From Candidatus Saccharimonadota bacterium (GTDB lineage Bacteria > Patescibacteriota > Saccharimonadia > Saccharimonadales > UBA4665), in assembly GCA_003153395.1 (NCBI GenBank), contig PLYP01000005.1:21701-85700 (forward strand): a DNA stretch of 64,000 nucleotides, in the 5' to 3' direction. Shown piece by piece: positions 7,431-22,291 of the stretch. Made by a program: the position numbers and the translations under genes. The first letter of the stretch is position 1; every line of letters begins with the position of its first letter. The notes beneath the pieces were generated by a model. That model was not told where the DNA came from and did no database searches. It saw only the letters and a program-made list of their open reading frames with translations.

Positions 7431-9114
7431 AGAATTCTTTGGCTTCCGCGCTAGCTACTTCGCCCTGATCTTTTTTGTCTTGGCTGTAATTTGGAATCCA
7501 CAAGTAGAAAATACTGCCTTTTCCAAGTTCAGTGTCAAACCATAACTTGGCTGTAAGTCTTTCCGCCAGCTTTTTTGCTATATATAGACCGAGTCCGGTA
7601 CCACCGTGCACTCTGGTCATGTAATCTTCGCTCTGGAAAAATTTTTTGAATATTTTCTTCTGATCGGAATGTGAAATGCCAATACCGGTATCCTTAACCG
7701 AAAAAGTAACTCCTTCTGGCTTGTCTTTTTTGTATTCCAGCGAAACTGTTACGCTGCCCTCGTCTGTGAATTTAAGGGCATTGCTTACAAGAGTAGTCAT
7801 TATTTCCTGAACGACGTAGCGACTGGTTAATATTACTGGTAGATCTATATTTCTATCTATCTTAGTAATCAGAGAGATACCCTTGGCCTTGGCCTGGTCA
7901 TTGAAATCAGATTTTAAATCCTTTAAAAGCTGGAGAGGATTTAATGGTTCAAGTTTTACATCCAGACTTTCACTATCGACTTTAGACAGGCTAGTTAGAT
8001 CTGAGATGATGTGTGATAACTGCTTCAAGCTTCTCATGGCACCGTTGAGCATATGCACGGCCTCAGGGTTACTTGGAACAAATGGAGGGGAAAGCATAAA
8101 CGACACGTCACCTTGGGCGATAGTAAGCGGGGTTCTCAGTTCATGTGCAGCTACGGCTATGAATTCTTTTCGCTCCTGCTCAATAGTTTTATCCTTTGTA
8201 ATGTCTCTAATAATAAGGACGTAGCCTTTCTGAATTCTATCTACTAGATACGGCGTGAAGCTTATATGCACGTTAATGAGGCTACCGTCAGGAGCATTTA
8301 ATCTCAAATCAGCTGTTTCTCGCATATTAGCCAGTTTTTTAACATCAAATTTTACTTCATTATTATTTGGATCCTGAAAAGCGAAGAGATCTTTTATGGA
8401 TTTCTTAAGCATAGAATCATGCCCAGTCAATTCGCTTGCCGCATGATTAAATATCATTACCTTGCCCTTGGTATCTATAACAAATACCGCGTCCCCAATA
8501 TTATTAACGAGTGTTAATAATTGGTGACGTTCGTTCTCTACTTCCGTGGCAAGAGCTAGCAGTTCTTTTCTTTCTGATCTTTCGGATCTGCTTAACCATC
8601 CTACGTATAATCCTATAGTTATATAAATCGCCATTTGAACAAGGAATGTTTTAGGTAAATCTGTCGTTCCAGCTACCGTATACGTATATATAATTAGGAT
8701 TGCAGCTTGAAGAATTCCTAAATTTATTGCAGTTAGGCTTCCGTACCAATAGGCGCTGGAGATTATCATTGTTGGTAATATTGCTAAGTAGGGGCTGGAT
8801 ACTCCACCACTATAAATAATTAAAACAAGCGCCAGAAAAGAATCAATAAACAACATTGCTGGTCTGTCTATTAGAAGAGTTTCTCTAACCTTATCGCCAA
8901 TTTTAAGCGTCAGATTATATATAATTGCTAGACCTTCAAGCAGGCCTATGACTTCTCTGTTTACTCCAGGGAAAAACCAGAAACTTACACCTACAATAGT
9001 GACTATAATCCACCTGGCGTACCAAGTGCTTTGTAAGTAGCTGGCGAGCTTAGGTTTTAATAGGGTATCGGTTTTAGACATTTGAGTAACAACACTTATG
9101 CTTAAGTATACCAA
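7417..9114 (-). CDS. sensor histidine kinase (multi-TM N-terminus, PAS, HisKA, HATPase_c)
   Basis: H-box AAHELRTPL, N-box LVSNALKFT, G-boxes DTGIGI and GGTGLGLYIAKKL, and a PAS-like segment (NNIGDAVFVIDTKGKV). No response regulator is adjacent. Confidence 0.9.
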   Translation of the reverse strand: MVYLSISVVTQMSKTDTLLKPKLASYLQSTWYARWIIVTIVGVSFWFFPGVNREVIGLLEGLAIIYNLTLKIGDKVRETLLIDRPAMLFIDSFLALVLIIYSGGVSSPYLAILPTMIISSAYWYGSLTAINLGILQAAILIIYTYTVAGTTDLPKTFLVQMAIYITIGLYVGWLSRSERSERKELLALATEVENERHQLLTLVNNIGDAVFVIDTKGKVMIFNHAASELTGHDSMLKKSIKDLFAFQDPNNNEVKFDVKKLANMRETADLRLNAPDGSLINVHISFTPYLVDRIQKGYVLIIRDITKDKTIEQERKEFIAVAAHELRTPLTIAQGDVSFMLSPPFVPSNPEAVHMLNGAMRSLKQLSHIISDLTSLSKVDSESLDVKLEPLNPLQLLKDLKSDFNDQAKAKGISLITKIDRNIDLPVILTSRYVVQEIMTTLVSNALKFTDEGSVTVSLEYKKDKPEGVTFSVKDTGIGISHSDQKKIFKKFFQSEDYMTRVHGGTGLGLYIAKKLAERLTAKLWFDTELGKGSIFYLWIPNYSQDKKDQGEVASAEAKEFFNEI

Positions 9115-9753: not shown

Positions 9754-9827
9754 TGGGGATTGGCCAAGCGGTAAGGCACTGGGTTCTGGTCCCAGGATCG
9801 GGGGTTCGAATCCCTCATCCCCAGCCA
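9754..9827 (+). tRNA. tRNA-Gln (anticodon CUG), CCA encoded
   Basis: Cloverleaf folded by hand. Acceptor TGGGGAT/ATCCCCA, D-arm GCC-AAGCGGTAA-GGC, anticodon stem CTGGG/CCCAG with loop TTCTGGT, T-arm GGGGG-TTCGAAT-CCCTC, discriminator G then CCA. TATAAT lies at 9735-9740. Confidence 0.93.
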
Positions 9828-9876
9828 AAGAAAAAGTATGATGAAATTGGTTTTTTTCTTATAATATCTACCAATA

Positions 9877-10560
9877 ATGCATTTTGATAACCATGAAATA
9901 GCTCTGCTTGATAATTTTCTTATTGATGTTGAGAAATCTTCACTATCTGGACTTTCAACCATGGAAGATTTGTGGATGATTGCTGACGCAGAAAGTAAAA
10001 TGTTGATTGAAGAAATACTTCAACTTAATCCCTTAGATTTCGAATTCAAAGGAAAGAAAATTAAAGAGGAGTCAATTCCAGATGATGTTGTAGCCATCGA
10101 CAATAGCAAATATGCTCAAGACGGAGAATATGCATTATTCAAAAAATCATATCTACCCAGACCTGTTTATGCGGCGTTTAGCAAGATGGGTGAGGAATTT
10201 ACAAAATCTTATCCAAGCCGAGTATTACTAGTTGGATCTGGGTATCGTTCACCTGCAAGTCAAGTAGTGACTTTAGTTTACATACTAGCCAAAATTTATA
10301 ATTTTGATATCAATAAAACTCTTAAGAGGGTAGCCCTTCCACAGTATTCAACGCACAGCTCTGTTAGCGAGACCGCTATTGACGTCATGAACGTTGACGG
10401 TGAACCTAAAGACGAAGACTCGTTGGCTTTTAAAGATAGCGTTGAATATGAATGGCTGAAAGACCATGCAAATAATTTTGATTTTTACGAATCGTATCCA
10501 CCCAATAACCCTGACGGTATTATGTGGGAACCTTGGCATTGGCAATATAAGTCAAATTAG
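9877..10560 (+). CDS. peptidase M15B (VanY-type D-alanyl-D-alanine carboxypeptidase-like)
   Basis: SGYRSPASQ, STHSSVSETAIDV (SxHxxGxAxD-like) and WEPWHWQY C-terminal motifs. No obvious signal peptide. The true start may be an internal Met. Confidence 0.7.
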   Translation: MHFDNHEIALLDNFLIDVEKSSLSGLSTMEDLWMIADAESKMLIEEILQLNPLDFEFKGKKIKEESIPDDVVAIDNSKYAQDGEYALFKKSYLPRPVYAAFSKMGEEFTKSYPSRVLLVGSGYRSPASQVVTLVYILAKIYNFDINKTLKRVALPQYSTHSSVSETAIDVMNVDGEPKDEDSLAFKDSVEYEWLKDHANNFDFYESYPPNNPDGIMWEPWHWQYKSN

Positions 10561-10762
10561 TCCGAAATTCGTTAGACAAGGCCAGCCAAATGCAGCATAA
10601 CAGACGTACGCCCACATACCTTTTCATTTTGTATAGACACCGCGTAAGTAAGCGCATCGCAGATCGTAACGAGATACAAATCATCTGCGCCCTGTGACTA
10701 CGGTCATGATTTGCCAGTAGCTCATTCCCGTATACTAAAATAGTTGGTAAAGGGAATGGATT

Positions 10763-13555
10763 ATGAACTCTGATATACAGCGGCTGGCTCCTGACAAGGT
10801 TTATGGCAAGCTTTCAACGACGACTCAAGGATTAAGCGAATTAGAAGTGGAAACTCGCAGGCAACGCTTTGGTAATAACATAATTGAAGAGTTTGTCCGA
10901 ACCGGATACTACGCCAGGTTGATTGCTAACTTTACGCACATGATGGCTGTCCTACTATGGGCGGGTGGAGCCATAGCATTCATCGCAGGCATGCCGCAAC
11001 TTGGCATAGCTATATGGCTGGTTAATATTATCAACGGTGTATTCAGCTTTTGGCAGGAATATCGCGCGGAAAAAGCCACTCAGACTTTACAGAAATTGCT
11101 TCCGCAAAAGGCCGTAGTTATCCGTAGTGGGGTGGAGCAAAGCGTACTAGCAGACGAACTAGTTCCGGGTGATGTTATCGTACTGTCTCAAGGCGACCAT
11201 ATCTCAGCTGACGCCCGACTGGTAAGTGAGGCCGAGCTGCGGGTTGATCAGTCAATCCTTACAGGCGAGTCTGAGCCTGTACCGAAAGCCTCGTTGGCCA
11301 TTAGCCAAGAAAATTTGACAGCCGTCGAAGTTCCCAACCTGGTTTTTGCAGGAACAAACGTGGTGGCGGGTAATGGTCGGGCCGTGGTCTTTGCCACTGG
11401 CATGGATAGGGAGTTGGGCAAGATAGCCCATTTAACTCAGTCACTACCTCAAGACCTGTCGCCACTTCAAAAAGAAATGCAGACCGCTACAAAAATTATT
11501 ACGATCATGGTAATACTGATAGGCGGCTTTTTCTTCTTACTCGCAATCACTTTTGGACATATTAACTTTACAGACAGCGCAATTTTTACCCTAGGAATGA
11601 TAGTGGCGTTTGTGCCAGAGGGCATGCTACCCACCGTAACCTTAGCCCTGGCTATAAGTAGCCAGCGCATGTCCAAGCGAAATGCCCTAATAAAGAGGCT
11701 GTCATCCGTCGAAACGCTCGGCTGCACTACTGTTATTTGTTCCGATAAGACCGGCACATTAACTAAGAATGAAATGACTGTCCATGACATATGGCTGCCA
11801 CCATCTGCTTCAGCTGGTAAGTCGGGCAACCGACTAAGCGTGACTGGGACCGGTTACGGCGTAGAAGGTGAGATAATGCATCACGGCAAAATCTATTCAC
11901 CGGAGCAGGAAACCGGCCTCCATGAACTTTTGCAAGCTGCCCTGCTATGCAACAACGCACGACTAGTGGCTTCGACTGATGAGAGCGCCCATTGGAGCGT
12001 CTTGGGCGACCCAACGGAGGCAGCCCTGCTAGTGGCGACCCAAAAGGGTGGATTGGATCTACAGTTGGAGCTGGCACATTCGCCGCGCATTGACGAGCTA
12101 CCGTTTGAGTCAAGCCGCAAGCGCATGAGCACCATCCACCAAGTTTATGACGAAGGACAACCTACTTTGGATAGGGTAGCTTTGGCTAAGGGTTCGCCGC
12201 TTGAAACCCTCAGTTTATGTACGAATGTTCTGCAAAACGGTAAGGCGGTGCCGCTTAGTAGTGAACTGCGTGCTAGTATAGTGGCTGCCAACGACCAGTA
12301 TGCCCGGCAGGGGCTGAGGGTGTTGGCCGTGGCCTCCCGAAAGTTGCCAAGAAAGTTAAAGGAAATTTCAGCTGTCAATGTCGAGCAAGACTTAACGTTC
12401 CTAGGGCTGATTGCCATGATGGATCCACCTAGGCCAGAGGTTATTGAAGCGGTCAAGGCCTGCCAGAGTGCCGGAGTCCGGATCATCATGATCACCGGTG
12501 ATTACGGATTAACGGCCGAAAGTATAGCCAAACAGATTGGTATTACCCGCAAAAGGATACGAGTTGTGTCTGGCAGTGAACTTGACTACATGGATGATAA
12601 CAAGTTGCGCAACGTACTTGCCCATGAAGTCATCTTTGCCCGGAGCTCGCCACGGCATAAACTGCGAATTGTCGCTACCCTTCAGGGCCTAGGCCACATA
12701 GTCGCCGTAACCGGTGATGGCGTTAATGATGCTCCGGCACTAAAAAAAGCAGATATTGGTGTGGCGATGGGATGTAAAGGCACAGACGTAGCGAAAGAAG
12801 CCGCAGACATGATATTAACAGATGATAACTTCGCGTCAATTGTAAGTGCTATCGAAGAGGGACGAGCCGTATATGCCAACATAAGGAAGTTTGTCACCTA
12901 CATATTTACGAGCAATGCGCCTGAAGCCGTGCCTTTTATTATCTTCGTATTATCTAGAGCAAGTATTCCCCTAGCGCTTACTGTCATGCAGGTCATCTTC
13001 ATTGACTTAGGCACTGATATGGCCCCTGCCTTAGCCCTCGGCGCTGAACCGCCTGAGCCTGATGTCATGAATAGACCGCCGCGAAACCGTAAAGAGCATA
13101 TTGTTACACGATCCGTACTCATACGGTCTTACGTATATTTAGGGCTAATACAAAGCGGTGCGGCAATGGTTGCCTTCTTCTTTATGTATTGGATGCACGG
13201 CTACCATGGCTTCTTCGGGCTCCCTCACACCGGTAACCTGTACAGATCAGCGACAGCCATGACCCTGGCCACAGTGGTTGCCACTCAAGTTGGCAACCTC
13301 TTCGCTCAACGTACGGAAAGGCTTTCCAGCTTCAAGATAAAAGCCTTCGTCAATCCTTTAATCTGGATAGGAATTGCTGTTGAGCTGACGCTTATCTTTT
13401 CGGTTATCTACATCCCATTTTTCCAGCACATCTTTCAAACAGCTTCACTACCGCCAAGCAGCTGGTTATTCATATTTGCTTGGACGCCGTTGCTGCTGAT
13501 GGCCGATGAGTTAAGAAAATGGATCGTAAGAAGAAGAGCCGCTACCGCTGGCTGA
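10763..13555 (+). CDS. cation-transporting P-type ATPase, type II (SERCA/CtpF-like)
   Basis: TGES, TM4 PEGMLP, phosphorylation site DKTGTLT, TGDGVNDAPALKKADIGVAMG hinge, 10 TM pattern. Confidence 0.93.
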   Translation: MNSDIQRLAPDKVYGKLSTTTQGLSELEVETRRQRFGNNIIEEFVRTGYYARLIANFTHMMAVLLWAGGAIAFIAGMPQLGIAIWLVNIINGVFSFWQEYRAEKATQTLQKLLPQKAVVIRSGVEQSVLADELVPGDVIVLSQGDHISADARLVSEAELRVDQSILTGESEPVPKASLAISQENLTAVEVPNLVFAGTNVVAGNGRAVVFATGMDRELGKIAHLTQSLPQDLSPLQKEMQTATKIITIMVILIGGFFFLLAITFGHINFTDSAIFTLGMIVAFVPEGMLPTVTLALAISSQRMSKRNALIKRLSSVETLGCTTVICSDKTGTLTKNEMTVHDIWLPPSASAGKSGNRLSVTGTGYGVEGEIMHHGKIYSPEQETGLHELLQAALLCNNARLVASTDESAHWSVLGDPTEAALLVATQKGGLDLQLELAHSPRIDELPFESSRKRMSTIHQVYDEGQPTLDRVALAKGSPLETLSLCTNVLQNGKAVPLSSELRASIVAANDQYARQGLRVLAVASRKLPRKLKEISAVNVEQDLTFLGLIAMMDPPRPEVIEAVKACQSAGVRIIMITGDYGLTAESIAKQIGITRKRIRVVSGSELDYMDDNKLRNVLAHEVIFARSSPRHKLRIVATLQGLGHIVAVTGDGVNDAPALKKADIGVAMGCKGTDVAKEAADMILTDDNFASIVSAIEEGRAVYANIRKFVTYIFTSNAPEAVPFIIFVLSRASIPLALTVMQVIFIDLGTDMAPALALGAEPPEPDVMNRPPRNRKEHIVTRSVLIRSYVYLGLIQSGAAMVAFFFMYWMHGYHGFFGLPHTGNLYRSATAMTLATVVATQVGNLFAQRTERLSSFKIKAFVNPLIWIGIAVELTLIFSVIYIPFFQHIFQTASLPPSSWLFIFAWTPLLLMADELRKWIVRRRAATAG

Positions 13556-13601
13556 CAAATAGCTGCATTATATTGTTTCAAAGTGTCTCGTCTCGGGCAC
13601 A

Positions 13602-13623
13602 GTTCTAGGCCGGTATGCTCAGC
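13602..13623 (+). repeat. island intergenic motif, copy 1
   Basis: GTTCTAGGCCGGTATGCTCAGC, 47 nt after the ATPase stop. Confidence 0.6.
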
Positions 13624-13671
13624 CACGATAGATTCGAGCTAAAGTCAAATATGTAGAGTGGTTATCTATTA

Positions 13672-13701
13672 TTGTTCTAGGCCTGGACACTCAGCTATAA
13701 T
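13672..13701 (+). promoter_or_regulatory. candidate sigma-70 promoter for the SDR gene (overlaps island motif copy 2)
   Basis: TTGTTC (13672-13677), an 18-nt spacer, then TATAAT (13696-13701), about 60 nt upstream of the ATG at 13761. Confidence 0.4.
13674..13695 (+). repeat. island intergenic motif, copy 2
   Basis: GTTCTAGGCCTGGACACTCAGC, followed immediately by TATAAT. Confidence 0.55.
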
Positions 13702-13760
13702 AGACTTTAAAGTGACACCGCTTCATAATCATATTAACAAAGTCGCTAGAGGTGCTAATA

Positions 13761-14495
13761 ATGCCAGCAGAGAGCCGTAACCTTAAAGGAAATGTCATTG
13801 CCATTACAGGCGCTAGTTCGGGTATTGGACGGGAGACCGCCAGGCTGTTGGTTGAAGCAGGCGCGAAAGTAGCGCTTGGAGCTCGCCGTCTAGATAGACT
13901 TAATGAGCTAGTTAAAGAGCTTGGAAAAGATAGTGCCGTCGCTATCCAAATGGACGTAACAAGCGCTGATGAAAATAATAAATTTATTACGAAGACAATC
14001 GAGACATTTGGACGCCTAGACAGCGTAGTTGCTAACGCCGGCATTGGATATTATGGAGGGATAACTGACATCTCAGATGGTGAACTGACAAACATGATTG
14101 CCGTAAATTATTCCGGTACGATTTGGACAATTAGAGCTGCGGTTCCGGAATTCCGTAAAACTGGAGCTGGCGATATTGTGATCGTATCCAGTGTTGCTGG
14201 CTTTCGCGGTGGAGCTAATGAAGCTGTTTATGCGGGAACTAAGTTCGCTCAAATCGGGCTAGCAGGCTCCCTCGATCGCGAATTAACTCCTGAAGGCATA
14301 CGAGTTACCGCCATATGTCCTGCAGGTACCAATACCGAGTTCGCTATTGGAGCAGGTCGTACGGAGGGTGATCCAGCTTTGAACGACTACATGAGCCCCG
14401 CAGACGTAGCTTTCCAGATTGTTACTGCACTCCAACAGCCGCGTCGCATCAGGACTTCTGTCTGGATGACTTGGAGTATGGCTCAATTTAGTTAA
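13761..14495 (+). CDS. short-chain dehydrogenase/reductase (SDR)
   Basis: TGASSGIG cofactor motif, NAG, catalytic S...YAGTK. The ATG at 13761 is preceded by AGAGGTG; the ORF track uses a GTG at 13752. Confidence 0.88.
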   Translation: MPAESRNLKGNVIAITGASSGIGRETARLLVEAGAKVALGARRLDRLNELVKELGKDSAVAIQMDVTSADENNKFITKTIETFGRLDSVVANAGIGYYGGITDISDGELTNMIAVNYSGTIWTIRAAVPEFRKTGAGDIVIVSSVAGFRGGANEAVYAGTKFAQIGLAGSLDRELTPEGIRVTAICPAGTNTEFAIGAGRTEGDPALNDYMSPADVAFQIVTALQQPRRIRTSVWMTWSMAQFS

Positions 14496-14540
14496 TACGG
14501 CACATAACTGCCAAAAAGCTATACAAGCAGAATTAAGTGT

Positions 14541-14675
14541 ATGAATAAGTTATGGCATGAGCAACACAAAATGCCAAAGAATACGACACATGAAGAGCGG
14601 CTGAAGTGGCACCTAGAACATCAAAGGCAATGTGGTTGTAGGCCAATTCCAAAAAGTCTGCAAAATGGGGTATAA
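14541..14675 (+). CDS. 44-aa conserved-looking small protein (CxC, His/Lys-rich)
   Basis: ATG...TAA frame read by hand: MNKLWHEQHKMPKNTTHEERLKWHLEHQRQCGCRPIPKSLQNGV. It is below the ORF-track size cut-off. It replaces the unconvincing antisense ORF 14533..14727. Confidence 0.5.
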   Translation: MNKLWHEQHKMPKNTTHEERLKWHLEHQRQCGCRPIPKSLQNGV

Positions 14676-14677
14676 AG

Positions 14678-14698
14678 GTTCCAGACCGGCATGAGTAG
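14678..14698 (+). repeat. island intergenic motif, copy 3
   Basis: GTTCCAGACCGGCATGAGTAG, starting 3 nt after the mini-ORF stop. Confidence 0.5.
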
Positions 14699-14779
14699 TC
14701 AAGGATATGTACGCCATAAAAGTCCACAAGGGATAGGAGTTCAGGATTACGTAGTGTTTTAACTTGCTACAATTAAGGT

Positions 14780-15040
14780 ATGGTCAGATTTATTATTGAC
14801 GTGCGAGAGCCTGAAGAATACTCAGCCGGGCATGTTGCAAACGCACTAAACATACCTCCCTCGGAATTGATGAGTGGGACTGAAAAGCTTAGCGCTATAC
14901 CGAAAGACGCAGAAGTAATTTTGTATTGCAAAACTGGAAGCCGTTCTAACGTATCGAAAAATATTTTGGAGTCCATGGGTTATGTGAACGTTATAAATGG
15001 GATCAACAAAGATCACGTTGCAGCCAAGTACGGTTATTAA
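14780..15040 (+). CDS. single-domain rhodanese-like sulfurtransferase
   Basis: DVREPEEYSAGHVANALNIP and active-site loop CKTGSRS. SD AAGG at 14775-14778. Confidence 0.88.
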   Translation: MVRFIIDVREPEEYSAGHVANALNIPPSELMSGTEKLSAIPKDAEVILYCKTGSRSNVSKNILESMGYVNVINGINKDHVAAKYGY

Positions 15041-15097
15041 CAATCAACGTCTGTAGGATCCAGGCTTTCAGCATCAACCCGAACGAAATCCAAAAAG

Positions 15098-15119
15098 GTT
15101 CCTTACCGGTATGCTCAGC
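15098..15119 (+). repeat. island intergenic motif, copy 4
   Basis: GTTCCTTACCGGTATGCTCAGC, 58 nt after the rhodanese stop. Confidence 0.6.
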
Positions 15120-15176
15120 TAAGAGCACATATTTTACGCCTTATCCACTAAGTATTTGTTAGATTTACAGGTTAGT

Positions 15177-16958
15177 CTAGTTTTTTTTAGTGCGCCAATC
15201 TTTCCATATTAAACGGTGGATTGGAATTAATTTGGGTATGTCTCGAATTCCCGGTATAAATGGCACCAAAAGTAACAACAAGGTTGCAAGACTAGTAAGA
15301 TAAATAGCGATTAAGTCTACATTAGCTGATGTACTGAAACTGGGCACTTGATACCAAAGTGTGTATAGCCACAGCCATGGTTGTCCCGGAAACGAACCGG
15401 TTTCATTCATCACCCCCCATTGAGTTCCAGTCAAATGTTCAGATTTGGCAATTGATGAAAAATAGCTACCATCTTCTATAAATAACAGTGGTTTTGTGTA
15501 ATTGGTGCCGTAAAATGGCTGCTGTGCTAATAAATCAGCATCTATAGCTCCGCTTTGGGCCATCGACAATTCACTAGCAATCATAACCGGTAGAGGACCG
15601 TCGTCAGCCTTCGTTACTGTCGGTATCCCCGACTTAAACGTCACGCTGCTTGTAACTGCATTTAAGTAGGATTGAGCCCAGGCTTGCTGCTGCTTAGATG
15701 TAGCTCGATTATAGTCAGAGAGCGCTTTTGTGAGAGTTGAGTTCCCTAAAGCTACTGTTGAGAGCGGGGATAATACAAACGTTTGAGCTGGGTTTATTGG
15801 TTGGTGAACTCCGGCAAGCAATTGCGGTGAAACTCCGATGCGCTGTACATTTGAAGACCCATTATTATAGGGCGGCCCATACTTAGCTGTTTCACTGGTA
15901 CCTGCTAACTCACTCGCTGCTGTTCCCATAAAATCAGCGGGAGCAATCTTTGACCAAGTTGCAACAGTTACGGGCGGTTCATCTGGGGAAGATAGTAAAC
16001 TAGCAAGGCTAAATACTAGAAATAAAACTATTATTGTTGCGAGTGTTCCTTCTTTTAATATATCGTAGCGTCTTGTTGGCCCTTTCCAGTCTGCGGCTTC
16101 GGCAGCTTTCAGCGCTCGTCTAGCCGCTCGTCCATGCGCTCTTTGAATCGGATGAGAAACTCCCCTTACTCTTACCAATATAATATGTACTGCCACAAAT
16201 AATATTAGAACCAGCGGGATCACGATAATATGCCAAGTGAGTATTTGGCCAAAGTTCATAAGATTAAAAAATGATCCCAAGCCAGTAGCATTAATAGCAT
16301 CTTTACCGTTCGCAGCTATCCATTGTGAATCATAATTCTGCTGAGATAAGTACCCTGTGAAGCATTCTAGAATGGATACCCCAAAAGCTAAAACTCCTGT
16401 CATCCATGTTAATGCTCGTTTGCCTCGCCAAGCTGCCATCCAAAACTTACCCCATAAGTGAATAACCATAAAGGCCATAAATAGCTCGACACTCCATAGG
16501 TGCACACTATTCACAAAGTGCCCTAATGGACTATCGTGCCACCAATTAACCCCACCAATTGCCAGTACCACGCCGGAAGCCATCAACACGCCTAAAGCAG
16601 CTAGAGTTGCAACGCCAAATACATAGATCCATGATGAAACGTAAGCCGGTTGACGATCGGGCAGCAGCTTGCCTGGTGGTAGTATCCTTAGGAAAAAGTT
16701 TCTTACTTTGTTAGTCCACATGCCATTGGGCTTACTGGCAAATGGCCCATGATTGACGTCTTGGTTGTCAGATTCAGTATCTTTATCAGCCTCATTATCT
16801 CGACTTTTTGGAAACGGCAATAGAATTGCCAGTCCAAAAATAACTACCATAGTAGCTATAATTATCAAATTTGCTATAGATATCGTGAAAATTGACCAAT
16901 GGATGTAATGCTGAGGGTGATTTAAGTTTACAAGAGAAGCGATTGTTTCGATATTCAT
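15177..16958 (-). CDS. cytochrome b (bc/b6f-type N-terminal domain)-like membrane protein with a large divergent C-terminal region
   Basis: Helix B H-x13-H (HLWSVELFMAFMVIH), then GKFWMAAWRGKRALTWMTG (compare FxxGxFRxPRExxW). Helix D H-x14-H (HIIVIPLVLILFVAVH). A further TM helix, then about 230 aa of non-TM sequence and C-terminal TM helices. Confidence 0.75.
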   Translation of the reverse strand: MNIETIASLVNLNHPQHYIHWSIFTISIANLIIIATMVVIFGLAILLPFPKSRDNEADKDTESDNQDVNHGPFASKPNGMWTNKVRNFFLRILPPGKLLPDRQPAYVSSWIYVFGVATLAALGVLMASGVVLAIGGVNWWHDSPLGHFVNSVHLWSVELFMAFMVIHLWGKFWMAAWRGKRALTWMTGVLAFGVSILECFTGYLSQQNYDSQWIAANGKDAINATGLGSFFNLMNFGQILTWHIIVIPLVLILFVAVHIILVRVRGVSHPIQRAHGRAARRALKAAEAADWKGPTRRYDILKEGTLATIIVLFLVFSLASLLSSPDEPPVTVATWSKIAPADFMGTAASELAGTSETAKYGPPYNNGSSNVQRIGVSPQLLAGVHQPINPAQTFVLSPLSTVALGNSTLTKALSDYNRATSKQQQAWAQSYLNAVTSSVTFKSGIPTVTKADDGPLPVMIASELSMAQSGAIDADLLAQQPFYGTNYTKPLLFIEDGSYFSSIAKSEHLTGTQWGVMNETGSFPGQPWLWLYTLWYQVPSFSTSANVDLIAIYLTSLATLLLLLVPFIPGIRDIPKLIPIHRLIWKDWRTKKN

Positions 16959-17034
16959 ATCCTATATTCTACCATTCGAACTATCATTTTAGTGTGATCT
17001 CTGTCAATGTATTTATGCTAATCAGCTCAGAACG

Positions 17035-17598
17035 CTATTTTGTGTCAGTTAATTGTTGTCGGCCATATTTGTTTACTACCTTGCAGAGCAAAATACCGAA
17101 TGCAAGTTGAAAAATTACCTGTCCTTGGAGTAGTAGGCCATGTGGTTTTGGCAAGTAATAAAATGAGATAAGTCCGCCGCATAATTCAATGCAAACCAAG
17201 CCAAGATTTTGCCAGCTAAAGTCTATTTTTACCAATAGCCAGATGGACAATACTAGCTGGAATACAAATAGGGTTGTTCCGATAGCAGTATGGATTGGAT
17301 TCACTAATGTGTGAGGAGTTAATACTAATCCTGTGAGCAATAATGCCATGACTCGTAAACCGTAAGCAACGTAGTTATGAAGCTTATTATTATTGACTAA
17401 TACCCTGGCAGCCTCCCAATAAAAGTAAGCGTTCAGAAAAAAGGCCGCAGAATATGGAATAATCGTATTTTTAAAGCTACCAAAATAGCTAAGTCCGTCA
17501 TTAGCAGAGAGACCGGCTGGACGGATAAGTATACATATCAGCAGTAATGTGAACGCTGCAATTAGACCGTAAGATATGCTACGTGCTGCTTGAGTCAT
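17035..17598 (-). CDS. polytopic membrane protein, unknown function (upstream of the cytochrome b-like gene)
   Basis: 187 aa with about 6 hydrophobic helices, same strand, 76 nt from the next gene. Confidence 0.5.
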   Translation of the reverse strand: MTQAARSISYGLIAAFTLLLICILIRPAGLSANDGLSYFGSFKNTIIPYSAAFFLNAYFYWEAARVLVNNNKLHNYVAYGLRVMALLLTGLVLTPHTLVNPIHTAIGTTLFVFQLVLSIWLLVKIDFSWQNLGLVCIELCGGLISFYYLPKPHGLLLQGQVIFQLAFGILLCKVVNKYGRQQLTDTK

Positions 17599-17620
17599 GT
17601 TAATTATAGCCCTAGTCTAT

Positions 17621-17634
17621 GGTATACCCTCAGC
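17621..17634 (+). repeat. island intergenic motif, copy 5 (3' half)
   Basis: GGTATACCCTCAGC followed by TGTAAT. It shares GGTAT..CTCAGC with copies 1 and 4. Confidence 0.4.
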
Positions 17635-17762
17635 TGTAATAGCGTTAAGTAGACATGTGTGTGATGCGGATCATCGTCTTTTGGAGACATTGCTTACAGA
17701 CAGTCATTTTGCATCAGTACATACTGGGTAATGTCAACTTAATATGCATGGGAAGGAGGCCT

Positions 17763-17852
17763 ATGATATCGAGAGCTTATTGTCATGAAACGAGAATCGA
17801 AAGAGATGCAGAGAACTACGCGTCAAGCAAATTAGTAAGGGGGATATCATGA
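17763..17852 (+). CDS. candidate 29-aa upstream ORF, translationally coupled (ATGA) to the next gene
   Basis: Strong SD GGAAGGAGG (17750-17758), then the ATG at 17763. MISRAYCHETRIERDAENYASSKLVRGIS. Its stop TGA overlaps the ATG at 17849. Confidence 0.3.
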   Translation: MISRAYCHETRIERDAENYASSKLVRGIS

Positions 17853-18247
17853 AATTATCATTGAAGGATGTAATAAACGCACTACTCGCTATCGGGGGTG
17901 CGGCCGTTGTGTATGCTAAATTTTATAGCTATTCATGGTCGGTGATAGGTAGCTGGCGCAGTGCGGTCGCTGTACTAGCGCTAATTGGTCTAGTTATGTT
18001 TGCATTTAGTAGCTTCAATTTTGCCAACCGAAGCATACTTAATGTCACCGAAATGATGTTAGGAGTTGTGGCAATTGGACTAGTAATTGTAGGGGTCATC
18101 ATGACCAGCCAATTTGTGTTCTATAGTCTGGCTATCGTCCTTGGGCTAGAGTGGTTGGTTGACACAGCCCGTCATGCTCGTCATAGCTGGATCGGCGAAG
18201 AGGGCTACGGAACAACTACGTTTCACCACCATGCCCATGTTCACTGA
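17849..18247 (+). CDS. small membrane protein with a His-rich C-terminus
   Basis: Four predicted TM helices. The tail reads HARHSW...TTTFHHHAHVH. SD AAGGGGG upstream. Confidence 0.55.
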   Translation: MKLSLKDVINALLAIGGAAVVYAKFYSYSWSVIGSWRSAVAVLALIGLVMFAFSSFNFANRSILNVTEMMLGVVAIGLVIVGVIMTSQFVFYSLAIVLGLEWLVDTARHARHSWIGEEGYGTTTFHHHAHVH

Positions 18248-18315
18248 AAGTTAGTATTGTAAACGTATACGCAGAAAATACCACCGGTAATTAAGTTAAT
18301 AACGAGGGGGAAGCT

Positions 18316-18744
18316 ATGCAGTTAGTACGATACAATCCGCTCCGTGATTTACAAAGGATGGAACGGGATCTAGATAAGTTTTGGGAGGATGACTGGGGTT
18401 TATTGCCTTCGCTCGCTGACTCGACGACTATGGATCTTTACGAAGAAGATGGCAAATTAGTAGCCGAGTTGAGTCTGCCGAACTTCACGAAGGATGAGGT
18501 AAAGGTAACCACCGATGAAGGGGTGCTGGAAGTTTCAGCCGAACACAGCGAGAAAGAAGAGGGCAAAGGCAAGCGACGGTATTACTTCCGAGAAAGCAGT
18601 AACCGATATTTGCGCCGTGTCAAATTGCCAGAAGGCGTGAGAATCGACAATACCGAGGCTGTATTCAAAGACGGGGTATTGAGGGTAGCGATGCCGACTA
18701 CTACCTCTCCCAAGATTAAAGCCAAAACTGTACCTATTAAGTAA
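18316..18744 (+). CDS. Hsp20/alpha-crystallin family small heat-shock protein
   Basis: Alpha-crystallin domain pattern: DLYEEDGKLVAELSLPNFTKDEVKV...VLEVSAEH...F.RRVKLPEGV...A.FKDGVLRVAMP. Confidence 0.92.
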   Translation: MQLVRYNPLRDLQRMERDLDKFWEDDWGLLPSLADSTTMDLYEEDGKLVAELSLPNFTKDEVKVTTDEGVLEVSAEHSEKEEGKGKRRYYFRESSNRYLRRVKLPEGVRIDNTEAVFKDGVLRVAMPTTTSPKIKAKTVPIK

Positions 18745-18747
18745 ACC

Positions 18748-19416
18748 GTGATGATCTACCGCAACCGCCAACAGGCAGGCAAAGAACTGGCTAAAGCGCT
18801 CATACGCTATAAGGGAGAAGCCGCCGTTGTACTGGCCTTGCCTCGCGGCGGAATAGTCTTAGGTGCAGAGGTTGCGAAAAGTCTTCGAGTACCACTGGGT
18901 CTCGTCTTAGTCCGCAAGATCGGACACCCATCGTATGCCGAATATGCAGTCGGTGCTATAGCTGAGGATGAAACACCGATTTACAATCAGTCTGAAATCG
19001 CTAATATCGACAAAACCTGGCTTAAGCATGCAGAGACAGCTGCCAGAGAACTTATTGTGCGGCGACGGGAACAGTACTATGGGAAAGACTTCGTAGCACC
19101 CAGTTTGTTAAACAAGACCGCGATCATTGTCGATGACGGTATTGCTACCGGACTAACTATGCAGGCTGCAGTGAAGGCTGTCAGAAACAAGCATTCCAAA
19201 CAAGTGATAGTGGCCGTACCAGTTGCCTCTCAGGAAAGTGTCGACGCGTTAAAAGATAGTGTTGATCAGCTCATAGTACTAGACAATCCTGAAAACTTTT
19301 TAGGCGCCGTCGGCGCTCACTACCAGGAATTTGATCAAGTTAACGATGAAGTAGTGGGAAGACTGCTTCGGGAGGTACATGATGACATGCTCCAAAACAC
19401 TGCCACGCATCGATAA
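18748..19416 (+). CDS. phosphoribosyltransferase-family protein (stand-alone type I PRT domain)
   Basis: PRPP-binding loop AIIVDDGIATGLTMQAA. It starts 3 nt after the Hsp20 stop, so it is probably co-transcribed. Confidence 0.8.
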   Translation: MMIYRNRQQAGKELAKALIRYKGEAAVVLALPRGGIVLGAEVAKSLRVPLGLVLVRKIGHPSYAEYAVGAIAEDETPIYNQSEIANIDKTWLKHAETAARELIVRRREQYYGKDFVAPSLLNKTAIIVDDGIATGLTMQAAVKAVRNKHSKQVIVAVPVASQESVDALKDSVDQLIVLDNPENFLGAVGAHYQEFDQVNDEVVGRLLREVHDDMLQNTATHR

Positions 19417-19501
19417 TATACTCTGGCTCAGGAAGTTAGCCAGCCATACCCTTTGTATCTATTAAATTCTGGTGACCATTGTGTATTAGTACCTGACTTT
19501 G

Positions 19502-20626
19502 CTAAAAATTCATTGACGGGCTTAATTGGTGGACAATTGCAGTTAGTCTGCTGATTTTGCAGTTTAGCCCGCTATCATTGAGACTTTTGACGCTCGATGG
19601 ACTGTATATAAGCCACCCGAACATCTCTGCTCTATCCTCTTCGATTGCATACGTGGCGTATTGTGAAATAAATCCAGGTTGAGGGTGAAATGCCCCATTG
19701 TAGCCTCCCCCGTATGCCGATGCCCCGCCGTTACCATAATTAAATCCAGCCGTATTGCATGACGACCATTGGCTATCGGCATAATTATATGAACCCTGCA
19801 TTCTGTAGTCTAGGTAGTGCCAATACTCATGGCTAACAACTTCCCTTGCATAGGCGCTGCCGGCATTTGTCATCATATTTACGTCATATAACATGCCTGT
19901 AATGCTAGGCGCTGGTGCGGCCGCCCGGGCACCTCCTGAGACTTTCAAGTTTGTTACTAGACCAATTGTTTTAAGCCCGGAATTCACAACTAGACTAGTG
20001 GGGTACTTACTAAATTCTTGCGTTAAATACGTGCTAAACTGTTGCAAATTATTAATATCACTGCTAGTTAGAGTGGACCATGTCGAATATGTATAAGCAT
20101 TATTGTTAGGAGTTAGCGTAGCCGTTACGCCATATGGCTGTAGGCGTTGATTAATCGTTGCCACTATTTCGCTGAGTGACTGTTGCGGTGCGGTAGACTG
20201 TGCAACAGGTTTTGGTGCTGCCGAAGGAGTTGTTGACGTTTTTGGTGCTATAGCGATAGATTGGGGCGTTGGTTTGCTGACAGACTGAGCAGTATGCTTT
20301 AATTTTGCTGTAGAAGCTCTCTTAGCAATTGGGGTACTAGTTGTTTGATGGTGCTGATTAAGATGAATATTGAAAGATGCAGCTAAGACACCTAGTAAAC
20401 AAACTAGTGCTACGAGAAGCGCTGTAATGCTTGTTAGCTTTTTAGGTAATCGCATTCCGACTAGCCGACTTCCGGATTTATTGTGCGGAATTACACGAAC
20501 ACCTGAATGATGTGTATACACGGGTTTATCTGGCGTGCCAGATATGTTAACAGCTCCGCAATGTGGGCATACGATAAAACCTGTCTTGTCAGATAGTAAT
20601 TGTTGATTGCATGAAAAGCATGTCAT
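19502..20626 (-). CDS. zinc-ribbon / single-TM / low-complexity linker / HExxH metallopeptidase-like protein
   Basis: N-terminal CxxC...CPHC ribbon (MTCFSCNQ...CPHCG). TM helix LTSITALLVALVCLLGVLAA. Ala/Pro/Thr/Ser linker. C-domain with HEYWH (HExxH) and a downstream EDRAEMFGW. Confidence 0.6.
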   Translation of the reverse strand: MTCFSCNQQLLSDKTGFIVCPHCGAVNISGTPDKPVYTHHSGVRVIPHNKSGSRLVGMRLPKKLTSITALLVALVCLLGVLAASFNIHLNQHHQTTSTPIAKRASTAKLKHTAQSVSKPTPQSIAIAPKTSTTPSAAPKPVAQSTAPQQSLSEIVATINQRLQPYGVTATLTPNNNAYTYSTWSTLTSSDINNLQQFSTYLTQEFSKYPTSLVVNSGLKTIGLVTNLKVSGGARAAAPAPSITGMLYDVNMMTNAGSAYAREVVSHEYWHYLDYRMQGSYNYADSQWSSCNTAGFNYGNGGASAYGGGYNGAFHPQPGFISQYATYAIEEDRAEMFGWLIYSPSSVKSLNDSGLNCKISRLTAIVHQLSPSMNF

Positions 20627-20719: not shown

Positions 20720-22291
20720 ATGATGCAAGTAACTATTGTGAAGAGCTGGCTAAGTCAGGTTAGGCATCACACTAGGTTGTTATTCATACTACTGGGATCT
20801 GCTTTTATAAGTGTTTGGACTTTGCTTCGTTTCTTTAATAGCACTTCTACTTATGATTTAACAACGCAGCAAGTGCTCGCGCATTCTTGGCTTCACGGCT
20901 ACGCGGCACCTATTAGTCTTGGCCCCACCAACTATCTATTAAAGATTTTCCTGATATATATGCCAGCCGACTTATTGCCTGGGTCTCCGCGTCTAAAATT
21001 AATACTTCTGACAATCTTGATCAATGTTGCAACGTACATATTATTGTTCATTGTTTTACAGAAAATCCTAGCTGAATTCAAGATTGAAGTTAGCAGTGCT
21101 TTCTATAGTGCCATGCTATGGTTATCCATTGTTGCAGGTTCGGTTTTTTGGATAGAGTTCGCAAATTCCAGAAACTTAGAGGTGGCCGGAGGCATGTTTT
21201 TAGTTTTATATAGTTTACGCGTATTAAGAGAACCGACTAAACGGAATACTGTTGGCTTAACATTACTAGCAACATTACTATTTTTTGCTGACACCTTGCA
21301 GGTATATATGGTGGCGTTACCTATTTTGGTTTACGCTTTGCTGCTTGCACTCTTTAAAAAAACGTCATGGAAGCGGATTACAACTATATTTGTTATTTTT
21401 AGTTGTGGAGTTATAGCAGCCCTTATTTTAACTTTTATCGCTAGGCATGTCTTAGATATTACTATTAGTAAAGCCGGGGCGGGTACCGTTCCGCAGGATG
21501 TCTCACAAATATCCCGAGCTGCCCAAGCAGCCATCAGGTCTACAGTGCGCCAGTTAAGTGGTGGCATAGACGCTGGCAAACCAAGGGAAGTAGTAAATTT
21601 GCTATTTATAGTACTAGGAGTAATAAGTTTTACCCTAGGAATTCTGAGGCGCAAAGTTGCACTTCGTTTTGGTCTATTTGTAGTTATCTTTTTAATCGTT
21701 GATGAATTGGTTTACATTTTTAGCGGCACAGCCTTACAGAGTGATACATCTCGTTATCTTGTCATGCTCGCACCTGTTATAGTTCTGGCATTAGCATCGC
21801 TGAGCTATTTATTTGAGCAATCCATAGTACCCAAACTAGTCGTAATAGGATTCATACTATTCAATGCATTTTTACTCAGCCATGCATTGATTCAGTCGTG
21901 GGACACAAGCTTTCCTAAAGACAGACATTTAGGTAGTGTCATGCGTTATTTGAATAATCATAATTACGCCTATGCTTTCAGCAGCATGGATAGCGCTACG
22001 CCACTAGCTTATTATGGTGGCGTTAAACACACTTTACTGCTGCCAGTTGCTTGTGGTGGCGGTAAACTGGTCCACGCCTATGCATTTAGGGACACTCATA
22101 TCGCCGTCGATAGTAACCCGTCTAAACTAGTACCAGTGATTTTAGATGGCCAAGCAATAATTAATGCGCCTAGTGTATGCACAGAACAGCCAATCGTCAA
22201 TCAGTTAGGTAAACCGGCAACAACTGAAACAACGGACGACGGCAGTAGCGTGCTTCTTTTTAGTAGTACTAGACTTTTAGGTCTCAAGTAA
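20720..22291 (+). CDS. large polytopic membrane protein (possible GT-C-type glycosyltransferase)
   Basis: 523 aa with at least 10 TM helices and a soluble C-terminal domain. The architecture resembles ArnT/PMT-like enzymes, but no catalytic motif was verified. Confidence 0.4.
   Translation: MMQVTIVKSWLSQVRHHTRLLFILLGSAFISVWTLLRFFNSTSTYDLTTQQVLAHSWLHGYAAPISLGPTNYLLKIFLIYMPADLLPGSPRLKLILLTILINVATYILLFIVLQKILAEFKIEVSSAFYSAMLWLSIVAGSVFWIEFANSRNLEVAGGMFLVLYSLRVLREPTKRNTVGLTLLATLLFFADTLQVYMVALPILVYALLLALFKKTSWKRITTIFVIFSCGVIAALILTFIARHVLDITISKAGAGTVPQDVSQISRAAQAAIRSTVRQLSGGIDAGKPREVVNLLFIVLGVISFTLGILRRKVALRFGLFVVIFLIVDELVYIFSGTALQSDTSRYLVMLAPVIVLALASLSYLFEQSIVPKLVVIGFILFNAFLLSHALIQSWDTSFPKDRHLGSVMRYLNNHNYAYAFSSMDSATPLAYYGGVKHTLLLPVACGGGKLVHAYAFRDTHIAVDSNPSKLVPVILDGQAIINAPSVCTEQPIVNQLGKPATTETTDDGSSVLLFSSTRLLGLK

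Follow-up and report, generated by a model that had tools for sequence, protein, structure and literature searches.

A probable mosaic accessory region of stress and transport genes downstream of tRNA-Gln in a low-GC Saccharimonadales genome

Candidatus Saccharimonadota bacterium (Saccharimonadales, UBA4665; GenBank assembly GCA_003153395.1) carries a GC-rich run of stress and transport genes downstream of a tRNA-Gln gene on contig PLYP01000005.1. We analysed this run within a stretch of 64,000 nucleotides (positions 21,701 to 85,700 of the contig, forward strand), which we call the window and whose own numbering is used throughout. We find that the region from ~10.6 to 19.45 kb is probably a mosaic accessory region in a variable, poorly syntenic locus 3' of an anchor consisting of the tRNA-Gln gene, a VanY gene and a copy of the tRNA 3' end. 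Two blocks in this region are foreign in composition, namely a gene for a type II cation-pumping ATPase and a lineage-typical operon encoding a 132-residue membrane protein (mem132), a small heat-shock protein (Hsp20), a phosphoribosyltransferase-fold protein (PRT) and an 89-residue protein (89aa), the last of which is cut at the right edge. We favor the view that at least the ATPase gene and the Hsp20 operon were brought in by integrase-independent recombination, in one event or several, from a higher-GC member of the Saccharimonadales, and that the block ends at the truncated gene. The genes in between, which encode a short-chain dehydrogenase/reductase (SDR), a possible 44-residue product, a rhodanese, a 187-residue membrane protein (mem187) and a cytochrome b-like fusion, would be older residents or derive from a donor of similar GC content.

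The genes that carry this argument are given below with their GC content at third codon positions (GC3) and its z-score against 58 background genes in the window (mean 0.315, standard deviation 0.043, maximum 0.405).

10763 to 13555, plus strand: type II P-type cation ATPase, 930 residues (Pfam N, E1-E2, HAD and C domains); GC3 0.509, z = +4.5.
13752 to 14495, plus strand: SDR (Pfam adh_short, E = 1.3e-52), intermediate in composition; GC3 0.387, z = +1.7.
14780 to 15040, plus strand: single-domain rhodanese, 86 residues (Pfam Rhodanese, E = 3.4e-17); GC3 0.425, z = +2.6.
15177 to 16958, minus strand: cytochrome b-like fusion, 593 residues (Pfam Cytochrom_B_N_2, E = 3.9e-12), host-like in composition; GC3 0.362, z = +1.1.
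17035 to 17598, minus strand: mem187, an open reading frame (ORF) for a polytopic membrane protein of 187 residues, 5' of the cytochrome b-like gene and in the same orientation; GC3 0.356, z = +1.0.
17849 to 18247, plus strand: mem132, first gene of the operon, 82% and 69% identical to its counterparts in loci L094 and L095; GC3 0.451, z = +3.2.
18316 to 18744, plus strand: Hsp20/alpha-crystallin small heat-shock protein (Pfam HSP20, E = 4.5e-16); GC3 0.517, z = +4.7.
18748 to 19416, plus strand: PRT, a stand-alone type I phosphoribosyltransferase-fold protein of the TT1426 family (Pfam Pribosyltran, E = 1e-18); GC3 0.462, z = +3.4.
19379 to 19454, plus strand: remnant of the 89aa gene, about 25 codons with a 1-nt deletion, at the right breakpoint of the block.

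A previous reading of this DNA, made from its letters without database searches (the sequence-only reading), had described a compositionally foreign block of stress and transport genes without an integrase, and in this it was correct: the composition deviates, and none of the ORFs between 6.7 and 25.3 kb matches an integrase or transposase family of Pfam. In the window, which we treat as part of a Saccharimonadales genome of ~39% GC, sliding-window GC rises from ~0.38 to 0.47-0.52 at 10.5-14.5 kb, falls to 0.40-0.44 at 14.5-17.5 kb and reaches 0.44-0.48 again at 18-20.5 kb. Tetranucleotide distance is maximal at 11-14 kb and 18-20 kb and exceeds the 90th percentile at 10-15 kb and 18-21 kb, so that the anomaly has two peaks by both GC3 z-scores and tetranucleotides. 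GC3 in the ATPase, mem132, Hsp20 and PRT genes lies above the maximum of all 58 background genes, ribosomal-protein genes among them; the SDR, cytochrome b-like and mem187 genes stay close to the host in composition. The compositional anomaly is thus beyond chance and mosaic, as the sequence-only reading had suspected, with four genes at z-scores of +3.2 to +4.7 and host-like genes in the middle. Its four hand counts of GC (0.52, 0.52, 0.35 and 0.35) are reproduced exactly, the pile of antisense ORFs at 11467-14044 is present, and Pfam and NCBIfam agree with the gene identities it proposed (type II P-type ATPase, SDR, rhodanese, cytochrome b N-terminal domain protein, Hsp20 and PRT). The Shine-Dalgarno (SD)-like strings that it pointed out are also there, although one of them, GGAAGGAGG (17751-17759), precedes a 29-residue upstream ORF and not the mem132 gene.

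The right edge of the block coincides with a broken gene. The 89aa gene is full-length in the related loci L008, L094 and L095, where it follows Hsp20 in the first and PRT in the other two. Positions 19379-19441 of the window share 84% nucleotide identity with its 5' end in L008 (9567-9629), homology to L095 runs to 19451, and in a four-way alignment homology ends at ~19454. Within this alignment GCC-AG-CCA-TAC-CC in the window corresponds to GCA-AGG-CCA-TTC-CC in L095 (Ala-Arg-Pro-Phe-Pro), with a 1-nt deletion. Judged from these comparisons, the truncation of the 89aa gene is a genuine recombination breakpoint, and it lies within ~10 nt of the right edge that had been proposed from sequence alone. 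The short motif taken there as a boundary repeat, GTTAGCCAGCCA (19435-19446), falls inside the coding remnant; homology to the 89aa gene continues across it, which makes the motif part of the coding sequence of that truncated and frameshifted gene.

The operon that ends at this breakpoint is characteristic of the lineage. The order mem132-Hsp20-PRT-89aa is common to L094 and L095, both of 43% GC. The window Hsp20 (PF00011, 59.3 bits against a cutoff of 20.8) is 78% identical to its homologue in L008, 70% to that in L094 and 73% to that in L095, and PRT is ~75-76% identical to the L094 and 71% to the L095 protein, with matches of 58-61% in named Ca. Saccharimonadales. Among solved structures PRT has a single relative, Thermus TT1426, which is also its best PDB match (1WD5; E = 1.2e-36). 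In a further Saccharimonadales genome (GCA_035457485.1) an Hsp20-PRT-PRPP synthase cluster (PRPP, phosphoribosyl pyrophosphate) adjoins rpoBC, and this linkage of PRT to PRPP synthase suggests a role in nucleotide or PRPP metabolism. The window thus shares with these operons (GCA_035457485.1, L094 and L095) the same genes in the same order, 70-82% identity and overlapping or 4-nt junctions; it differs from them in its truncated and frameshifted fourth gene, in the lack of an adjacent PRPP synthase gene, and in a GC3 that stands 0.14-0.20 over the host genome. In L101 (8832-10546, on a 495-kb contig) a PRT homologue of 70% identity is cut to 181 residues and adjoins an IS3-type transposase pair (rve and HTH_Tnp_1); the PRT module has therefore been hit by rearrangement in other genomes too.

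The closest relative of the window ATPase (P0002; 76% identity) lies in L008, a 1.10-Mb contig of 55% GC. There Hsp20, 89aa and the ATPase are contiguous and match their host in composition (GC3 0.66-0.70), and we count this arrangement, with identities of 78% for Hsp20 and 76% for the ATPase, as a sign of shared history of the two GC-rich blocks. The remaining ATPase matches number in the hundreds at 59-63% identity, none exceeding 63%, and the few source names among these distant matches are Chloroflexota/Anaerolineae, Caldilinea, Meiothermus and Bacteroidota, none of them actinobacterial. An actinobacterial-type donor, as had been suggested for the GC-rich genes, is not supported, because their nearest homologues are in Saccharimonadales-type contigs; these genes therefore belong to the Saccharimonadales gene pool. 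Homologues in the same lineage as the flanking genes had been named beforehand as an outcome that would speak against a foreign-phylum donor, and for the GC-rich genes this is what was found. In composition they fit a donor from within the lineage with intermediate or high GC, and the candidate donor-type genomes range from 43 to 55% GC. L008 probably comes from the same broad lineage as the window, since it shares a 77%-identical accessory gene, encoding a 191-residue protein (L008, 15891-16466), with L009 (13374-13944); of the syntenic relatives of the window, L009 is the closest (RarA 78%, MetK 80%, VanY 69% identity). In L009 this gene belongs to the variable region that follows VanY, and an apparent frameshift splits it into ORFs of 141 and 56 residues. 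A circular permutation relating the L008 order (Hsp20-89aa-ATPase) to that of the window (ATPase, then Hsp20-PRT and the 89aa remnant) was considered and rejected, as no 3' part of the 89aa gene is found at 10561-10762 in either protein or DNA comparisons.

Several observations weigh against acquisition from such a donor. No relative is close enough to provide an empty site, the best VanY match being 76%, and acquisition is therefore deduced from composition and the right-hand breakpoint alone. The operon has a GC3 of 0.45-0.52 in L094 against ~0.38 in its neighbours, an elevation of ~0.10, and is slightly raised in L095, so that part of the offset could be intrinsic to the genes. Identities of 75-82% to the relatives fall in the range of housekeeping genes compared between the window and L009, such as RarA and MetK, and the genes themselves may thus have descended vertically. 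Moreover, the taxonomy of L008, L094 and L095 is one that we infer, and the functions assigned to all of these proteins are predictions at the level of families. On the strictest form of the vertical alternative there was no transfer at all: the genes are inherited Saccharimonadales genes with a GC3 set by gene-specific constraint, for example on the codon use of stress genes or on mRNA structure, and a local rearrangement truncated the 89aa gene. A lineage-typical operon, its raised GC3 in L094 and L095 and identities (70-82%) like those of housekeeping genes all agree with this account, which we nonetheless regard as unlikely. Gene-specific constraint would have to lift the ATPase and Hsp20 genes above every background gene, those for ribosomal proteins included. 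The L008 copies match their 55% GC host, however, and composition therefore tracks the host genome and is not fixed. The intergenic DNA 5' of the ATPase gene is also GC-rich (0.446 at 10561-10762), tetranucleotide usage departs from the background too, and the block, set in a locus without synteny, stops within a truncated gene.

The left side of the region has a different history, which bears on the proposal that the block is bracketed by tRNA-derived repeats. Its features are as follows.

9754 to 9827, plus strand: tRNA-Gln, anticodon CTG (ARAGORN; Rfam tRNA, 60.8 bits).
9877 to 10560, plus strand: VanY/LdcB-type LAS peptidase (Pfam VanY, E = 5.6e-17).
10560 to 10600, plus strand: degenerate copy of the tRNA-Gln 3' end, from the T-loop to just past CCA, an att-like displaced fragment.
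10601 to 10762, no strand assigned: approximate left junction and upstream region of the ATPase gene, GC ~0.45.

ARAGORN and Rfam both confirm the tRNA-Gln gene at the position first reported, and an Rfam scan of 9-21 kb finds nothing but the tRNA. The GC-rich block begins at or beyond 10.60 kb, ~780 nt past the tRNA, with VanY in between. This gene is native in composition (GC3 0.31, z = -0.1) and has orthologues of 69-76% identity in L009, L010 and L012 and of 50-55% in named Saccharibacteria genomes. A scan of species-representative genomes recovered relatives at 39-55% identity without synteny, all titled Candidatus Saccharibacteria or Saccharimonadales bar one Levybacteria. The adjacency of tRNA and VanY recurs in L010, where the tRNA-Gln gene lies ~50 nt 5' of the VanY orthologue; in L009 the distance is ~2.1 kb. 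The 40 nt past the VanY stop codon are kept after VanY in L010 and L011 and, more weakly, in L009. In L010 this fragment agrees at 17 of 19 nt with the tRNA-Gln 3' end and the flank that follows it (P = 0.004); if gaps are allowed, the alignment can be carried from the T-loop to ~25 nt beyond the tRNA, ~45 nt in all. The window's own fragment matches the tRNA end over 9 nt (P = 0.03-0.04). The tRNA-Gln gene, VanY and the tRNA 3'-end copy make up a conserved unit of 0.8 kb (window 9754-10600; L010 54-905). The left repeat of the sequence-only reading, GTTAGACAAGGCCAGCCA (10571-10588), sits within the degenerate fragment, and its origin as a displaced tRNA-Gln 3' fragment is borne out by the orthologous copy in L010. 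Because the fragment is found after VanY in relatives without the GC-rich block, it is, on this comparative evidence, the ancestral closure of the tRNA-VanY interval and not a boundary repeat of that block. VanY looks like the sole leftover cargo of an ancient insertion targeted to tRNA-Gln.

Homology among the window, L010 and L009 stops directly after the tRNA-like fragment, and the genes beyond it differ in each. The DNA beyond it also differs between the window, L010, L009 and L012, no homology to relatives sharing VanY is detected beyond ~10600, and the downstream region is preserved in none of the VanY relatives at 69-76% identity found by protein search. This loss of synteny is compatible with a recombination hotspot but is no proof of one.

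The three strings on which the bracketing proposal was built, GTTAGACAAGGCCAGCCA, GTTAGCCAGCCA and, at the tRNA 3' end (9821-9829), CCAGCCAAA, are all present where they were reported. Their supposed shared core, GCCAGCCA, occurs 3 times against an expectation of 1.39, and 18 of 100 shuffled sequences reach 3. The best match between left and right borders is 8 nt long (P = 0.30 against random 202-nt segments), and that between the tRNA end and the right border is 7 nt (P = 0.15). Enrichment of this motif at the borders, and with it bracketing of the block by tRNA-derived repeats, therefore finds no support: the left-right pair is no better than chance, a possibility that the sequence-only reading had itself allowed for, the left fragment brackets VanY only, and the right motif is 89aa coding sequence.

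These results make it quite improbable that the region is a single old island at tRNA-Gln from an actinobacterial-type donor, with its integrase lost and decayed att repeats (GTTAG..GCCAGCCA) at both ends. By the definition given in the Islander work (PMC4383910), tDNA islands are recognised by a regenerated tRNA together with a displaced fragment. The region resembles the islands so defined in being a variable locus beside a tRNA, with a displaced copy of the tRNA 3' end, atypical composition and accessory stress and transport cargo. The left motif is genuinely tRNA-3'-like, it is followed directly by the block, and no more than 10 nt separate the second motif from the right edge. Against such an island stand the lack of an integrase between 6.7 and 25.3 kb and the distal end, which is a truncated gene and not a tRNA fragment; the remainder of the window shows no further conspicuous tRNA-like fragment. 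The displaced fragment closes the 0.8-kb VanY interval and is older than the GC-rich block, which has its nearest relatives in Saccharimonadales-type and not actinobacterial contigs. The second motif, with a match of only 7-8 nt (P = 0.15-0.30), agrees base by base with the 89aa gene. A link to Actinobacteria is seen in a single gene, that for the cytochrome b-like fusion, whose relatives are overwhelmingly in high-GC contigs carrying DevR and DevS, and this gene has a host-like composition. An assembly chimera, in which part of a higher-GC relative would have been joined to a low-GC genome, is very improbable: the source is a metagenome scaffold and relatives of 43-55% GC occur in similar samples, but host-composition DNA lies on both sides of the block in one contig, the block is a mosaic whose central genes are host-like, and the ATPase, VanY and PRT proteins each appear, identical in sequence, on two database contigs of differing size (115,757 bp, WOOD18-1_SAMN07125042 scaffold_921 in ERZ28653421, and 157,146 bp).

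The ATPase had been labelled CtpF-type. All five of its Pfam domains (PF00690, PF00122, PF13246, PF00702 and PF00689) score above their cutoffs and its translation carries the DKTGT (CSDKTGTLT), TGES (LTGESEPV) and GDGVND motifs, so that it has the phosphorylation motif set and the N- and C-terminal cation ATPase domains of a type II P-type pump. It falls below the cutoffs of all NCBIfam equivalogs, the Ca2+ equivalogs included (TIGR01522, 640 against 798; TIGR01116, 570 against 703; TIGR01517, 418 against 507). In the PDB the Na,K-ATPase alpha subunit scores best (525 bits), ahead of Listeria LMCA1 (492) and SERCA (479), and the M6 motif IDLGTDMAPA is of the Na,K type. The CtpF-type label is therefore not upheld by the equivalog cutoffs and PDB scores. 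Relatives of 61-62% full-length identity and the same domain set occur in the Chloroflexota-type loci L099 (6001-10231) and L100 (6001-10206), each followed by two TrkA-N/TrkA-C genes, which are not found after the pump in the window or in L008. In L100 a GAF-GAF-HisKA_3 kinase is encoded 2 kb upstream. With Na,K-ATPase at the top of the PDB scores, an M6 motif of the Na,K type and TrkA pairs behind two relatives, the pump more likely handles K+/Na+ than Ca2+.

The host-like middle of the region contains the cytochrome b-like gene. Its predicted 593-residue product has an N-terminal four-helix, di-haem b6-like domain, followed by a transmembrane segment, a ~200-residue domain and a second transmembrane segment. 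Only PF13631 exceeds its cutoff (46.9 against 27), PF00033 remaining under its own; NCBIfam models for QcrB, b6 and ExtP score 28-49 against cutoffs of 290-500, and the PDB match to cytochrome b6 has E = 1e-9. Paired histidines in helices B and D (H-x13-H and H-x14-H) can be read directly. The protein thus resembles the cytochrome b of bc and b6f complexes in its four-helix bundle and two histidine pairs. Unlike that protein, it lacks the subunit IV (PF00032) half, has no Rieske or cytochrome c gene nearby, and is fused to a distinct C-terminal module of ~300 residues that elsewhere is a separate protein; this C-terminal half also occurs stand-alone in proteins of 320-340 residues.

More than 584 relatives of the fusion occur in JGI metagenomes. 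Each of the best 80 is complete or almost complete in length, and 76 come from contigs of 59-75% GC, with identities of ~59-66%. In a neighbour-joining tree the window sequence forms a low-GC clade with L014 (76% identity, 49% GC) and L039 (63%, 35% GC), the latter with neighbours like those of the candidate phyla radiation (CPR), beside the high-GC set. The best 77 high-GC sequences sampled (L015-L093) are at least 64% identical among themselves, and in a library clustered at 50% the family collapses nearly to one cluster. A plasmid search with the protein gave no match, and a 594-residue neighbour in L008 was tried as a homologue and rejected because it shows no homology. A conserved membrane protein of ~200 residues is encoded just 5' of the cytochrome b-like gene in 16-18 high-GC loci. 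In the window, mem187 has no Pfam or NCBIfam match.

Neighbouring genes in the high-GC loci encode Pyridox_ox_2 proteins, tandem universal stress proteins (USPs), cNMP-binding proteins, a zinc-dependent alcohol dehydrogenase, Hsp20, a nitroreductase-family (Acg-like) protein and CBS-BON proteins. A neighbouring REC+GerE regulator has M. tuberculosis DevR as its best PDB match (277 bits, against 153 for the next), and the first GAF domain of a neighbouring GAF-GAF-HisKA_3 kinase scores best against DosT/DevS (~170 bits); their orthology is read from these PDB matches, as NCBIfam gave no taxon-specific names. Among 58 high-GC loci with at least 4 kb of flank, 27 have one or more dormancy-type families within 6 kb and 13 have two or more, counts without a random-gene control. 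The high-GC bearers of the family are probably Actinomycetota, and this distribution, with a small low-GC clade besides, suggests an old cross-phylum transfer of the gene. The window copy is host-like in composition, and any crossing from Actinomycetota-type bacteria would have happened long ago.

Members of the M. tuberculosis DosR/DevR dormancy regulon include ctpF, hspX-Rv2030c and Rv0571c. The sequence-only reading drew an analogy between this regulon and the window, and the likeness extends to the co-occurrence of a type II P-type ATPase, an Hsp20 beside a PRT-domain protein, and oxidoreductases. The analogy gains some support from the cytochrome b-like relatives, which in high-GC contigs lie within ~6 kb of orthologues of DevR and DevS/DosT, USPs, nitroreductase-family, CBS, Hsp20 and Pyridox_ox_2 genes. 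Of the regulators, no DevR (REC+GerE) or DevS/DosT (GAF-GAF-HisKA_3) is encoded within 6.7-25.3 kb, where the sole nearby kinase is of the PAS-HisKA type, and the DosR box TTSGGGACTWWAGTCCCSAA has no match in the window with three or fewer mismatches. Neither USP nor nitroreductase genes are found in or near the block. The ATPase is nearer Na,K-type pumps than any Ca2+ equivalog, and the nearest homologues of the window Hsp20, PRT and ATPase are not actinobacterial. At the level of protein families the region would supply a stress kit for membrane and proteostasis functions, made up of a cation pump, a b-type cytochrome in the membrane, a chaperone of the holdase type, a transferase dependent on PRPP, and a pair of proteins for sulfur transfer and redox reactions. 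A much bolder proposal, which we consider a long shot, is that soil Saccharibacteria carry and exchange a hypoxia- or dormancy-type kit (the cytochrome b fusion, Hsp20-PRT-89aa and the type II cation pump), acquired partly from presumed actinobacterial hosts and gathering at a recombination hotspot linked to tRNA-Gln. Our search of the literature found nothing specific on this gene combination or on Saccharibacteria islands.

The region and its right flank contain the following further elements.

13602 to 13632 and 13674 to 13704, plus strand: two copies (24-31 nt) of a direct repeat, family D1, 5' of the SDR gene.
14541 to 14675, plus strand: possible ORF of 44 residues (MNKLWHEQHKMPKN...CGCRPIP...), read from the sequence and a candidate only.
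15098 to 15128, plus strand: third copy of the direct repeat, 3' of the rhodanese gene, overlapping a terminator-like hairpin.
17763 to 17852, plus strand: upstream ORF of 29 residues behind the SD GGAAGGAGG, with a stop codon that overlaps the mem132 start (ATGA).
19502 to 20626, minus strand: putative HExxH metallopeptidase lipoprotein of the right flank (Pfam Peptidase_Mx1, E = 3.8e-6).

The direct repeat unit, GTTCYWDRCCGGTATGCTCAGCYA, has a further partial copy at 14676-14710, and the repeats bracket the SDR gene, the 44-residue ORF and the rhodanese gene. No occurrence of the pattern is expected by chance, it is absent from all other fetched loci, and its second copy resembles a TTGTTC-18-TATAAT promoter; the repeats could be duplicated promoter or operator DNA or the ends of a small cassette. 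An SDR encoded directly after VanY in L012 was tried as an orthologue of the window SDR, which would have made the ATPase a single-gene insertion, and was rejected at 26% identity; identities of the window SDR to those of L012 and L094 are 26-38%. A rhodanese homologue (63%) lies ~0.8 kb from VanY in the Saccharibacteria contig L003. The possible 44-residue ORF, with the full peptide MNKLWHEQHKMPKNTTHEERLKWHLEHQRQCGCRPIPKSLQNGV, is not in the public gene set and has no Pfam match. The peptide of the 29-residue ORF, RAYCHETRIERD, and the DNA upstream of it, ATGTCAACTTAAT, resemble a 23-residue leader, ATRCHETVMERRD, 5' of Hsp20 in L008 (~9025-9110), and in L094 and L095 the short ORFs found upstream, again with strong SDs, are different ones. 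The Hsp20 operon may have a conserved leader or a regulatory element here. The right-flank metallopeptidase gene is near-native in composition (GC3 0.37, z = +1.2), and the match of its product to the NCBIfam LIC13305 family is under the cutoff.

Laterally assembled accessory regions are common in bacterial genomes, and the region described here would be a fairly ordinary variable region. Saccharibacteria have reduced genomes and their routes of gene exchange are poorly documented, and the region would offer an example of integrase-less gene flow among lineages of Saccharibacteria that differ in GC content. Two leads are of most interest. One is the conserved Saccharimonadales operon mem132-Hsp20-PRT-89aa, which is defined here. 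The other is the uncharacterised, tightly conserved cytochrome b fusion family, found in a few low-GC Saccharimonadales-like (CPR-like) genomes and in high-GC bacteria, where its DevR/DevS neighbourhood provides a testable lead to its role. If the improbable proposal of a dormancy-type kit were true, such a kit could allow an epibiont to enter and leave dormancy with its host while having no DevR/DevS system of its own.

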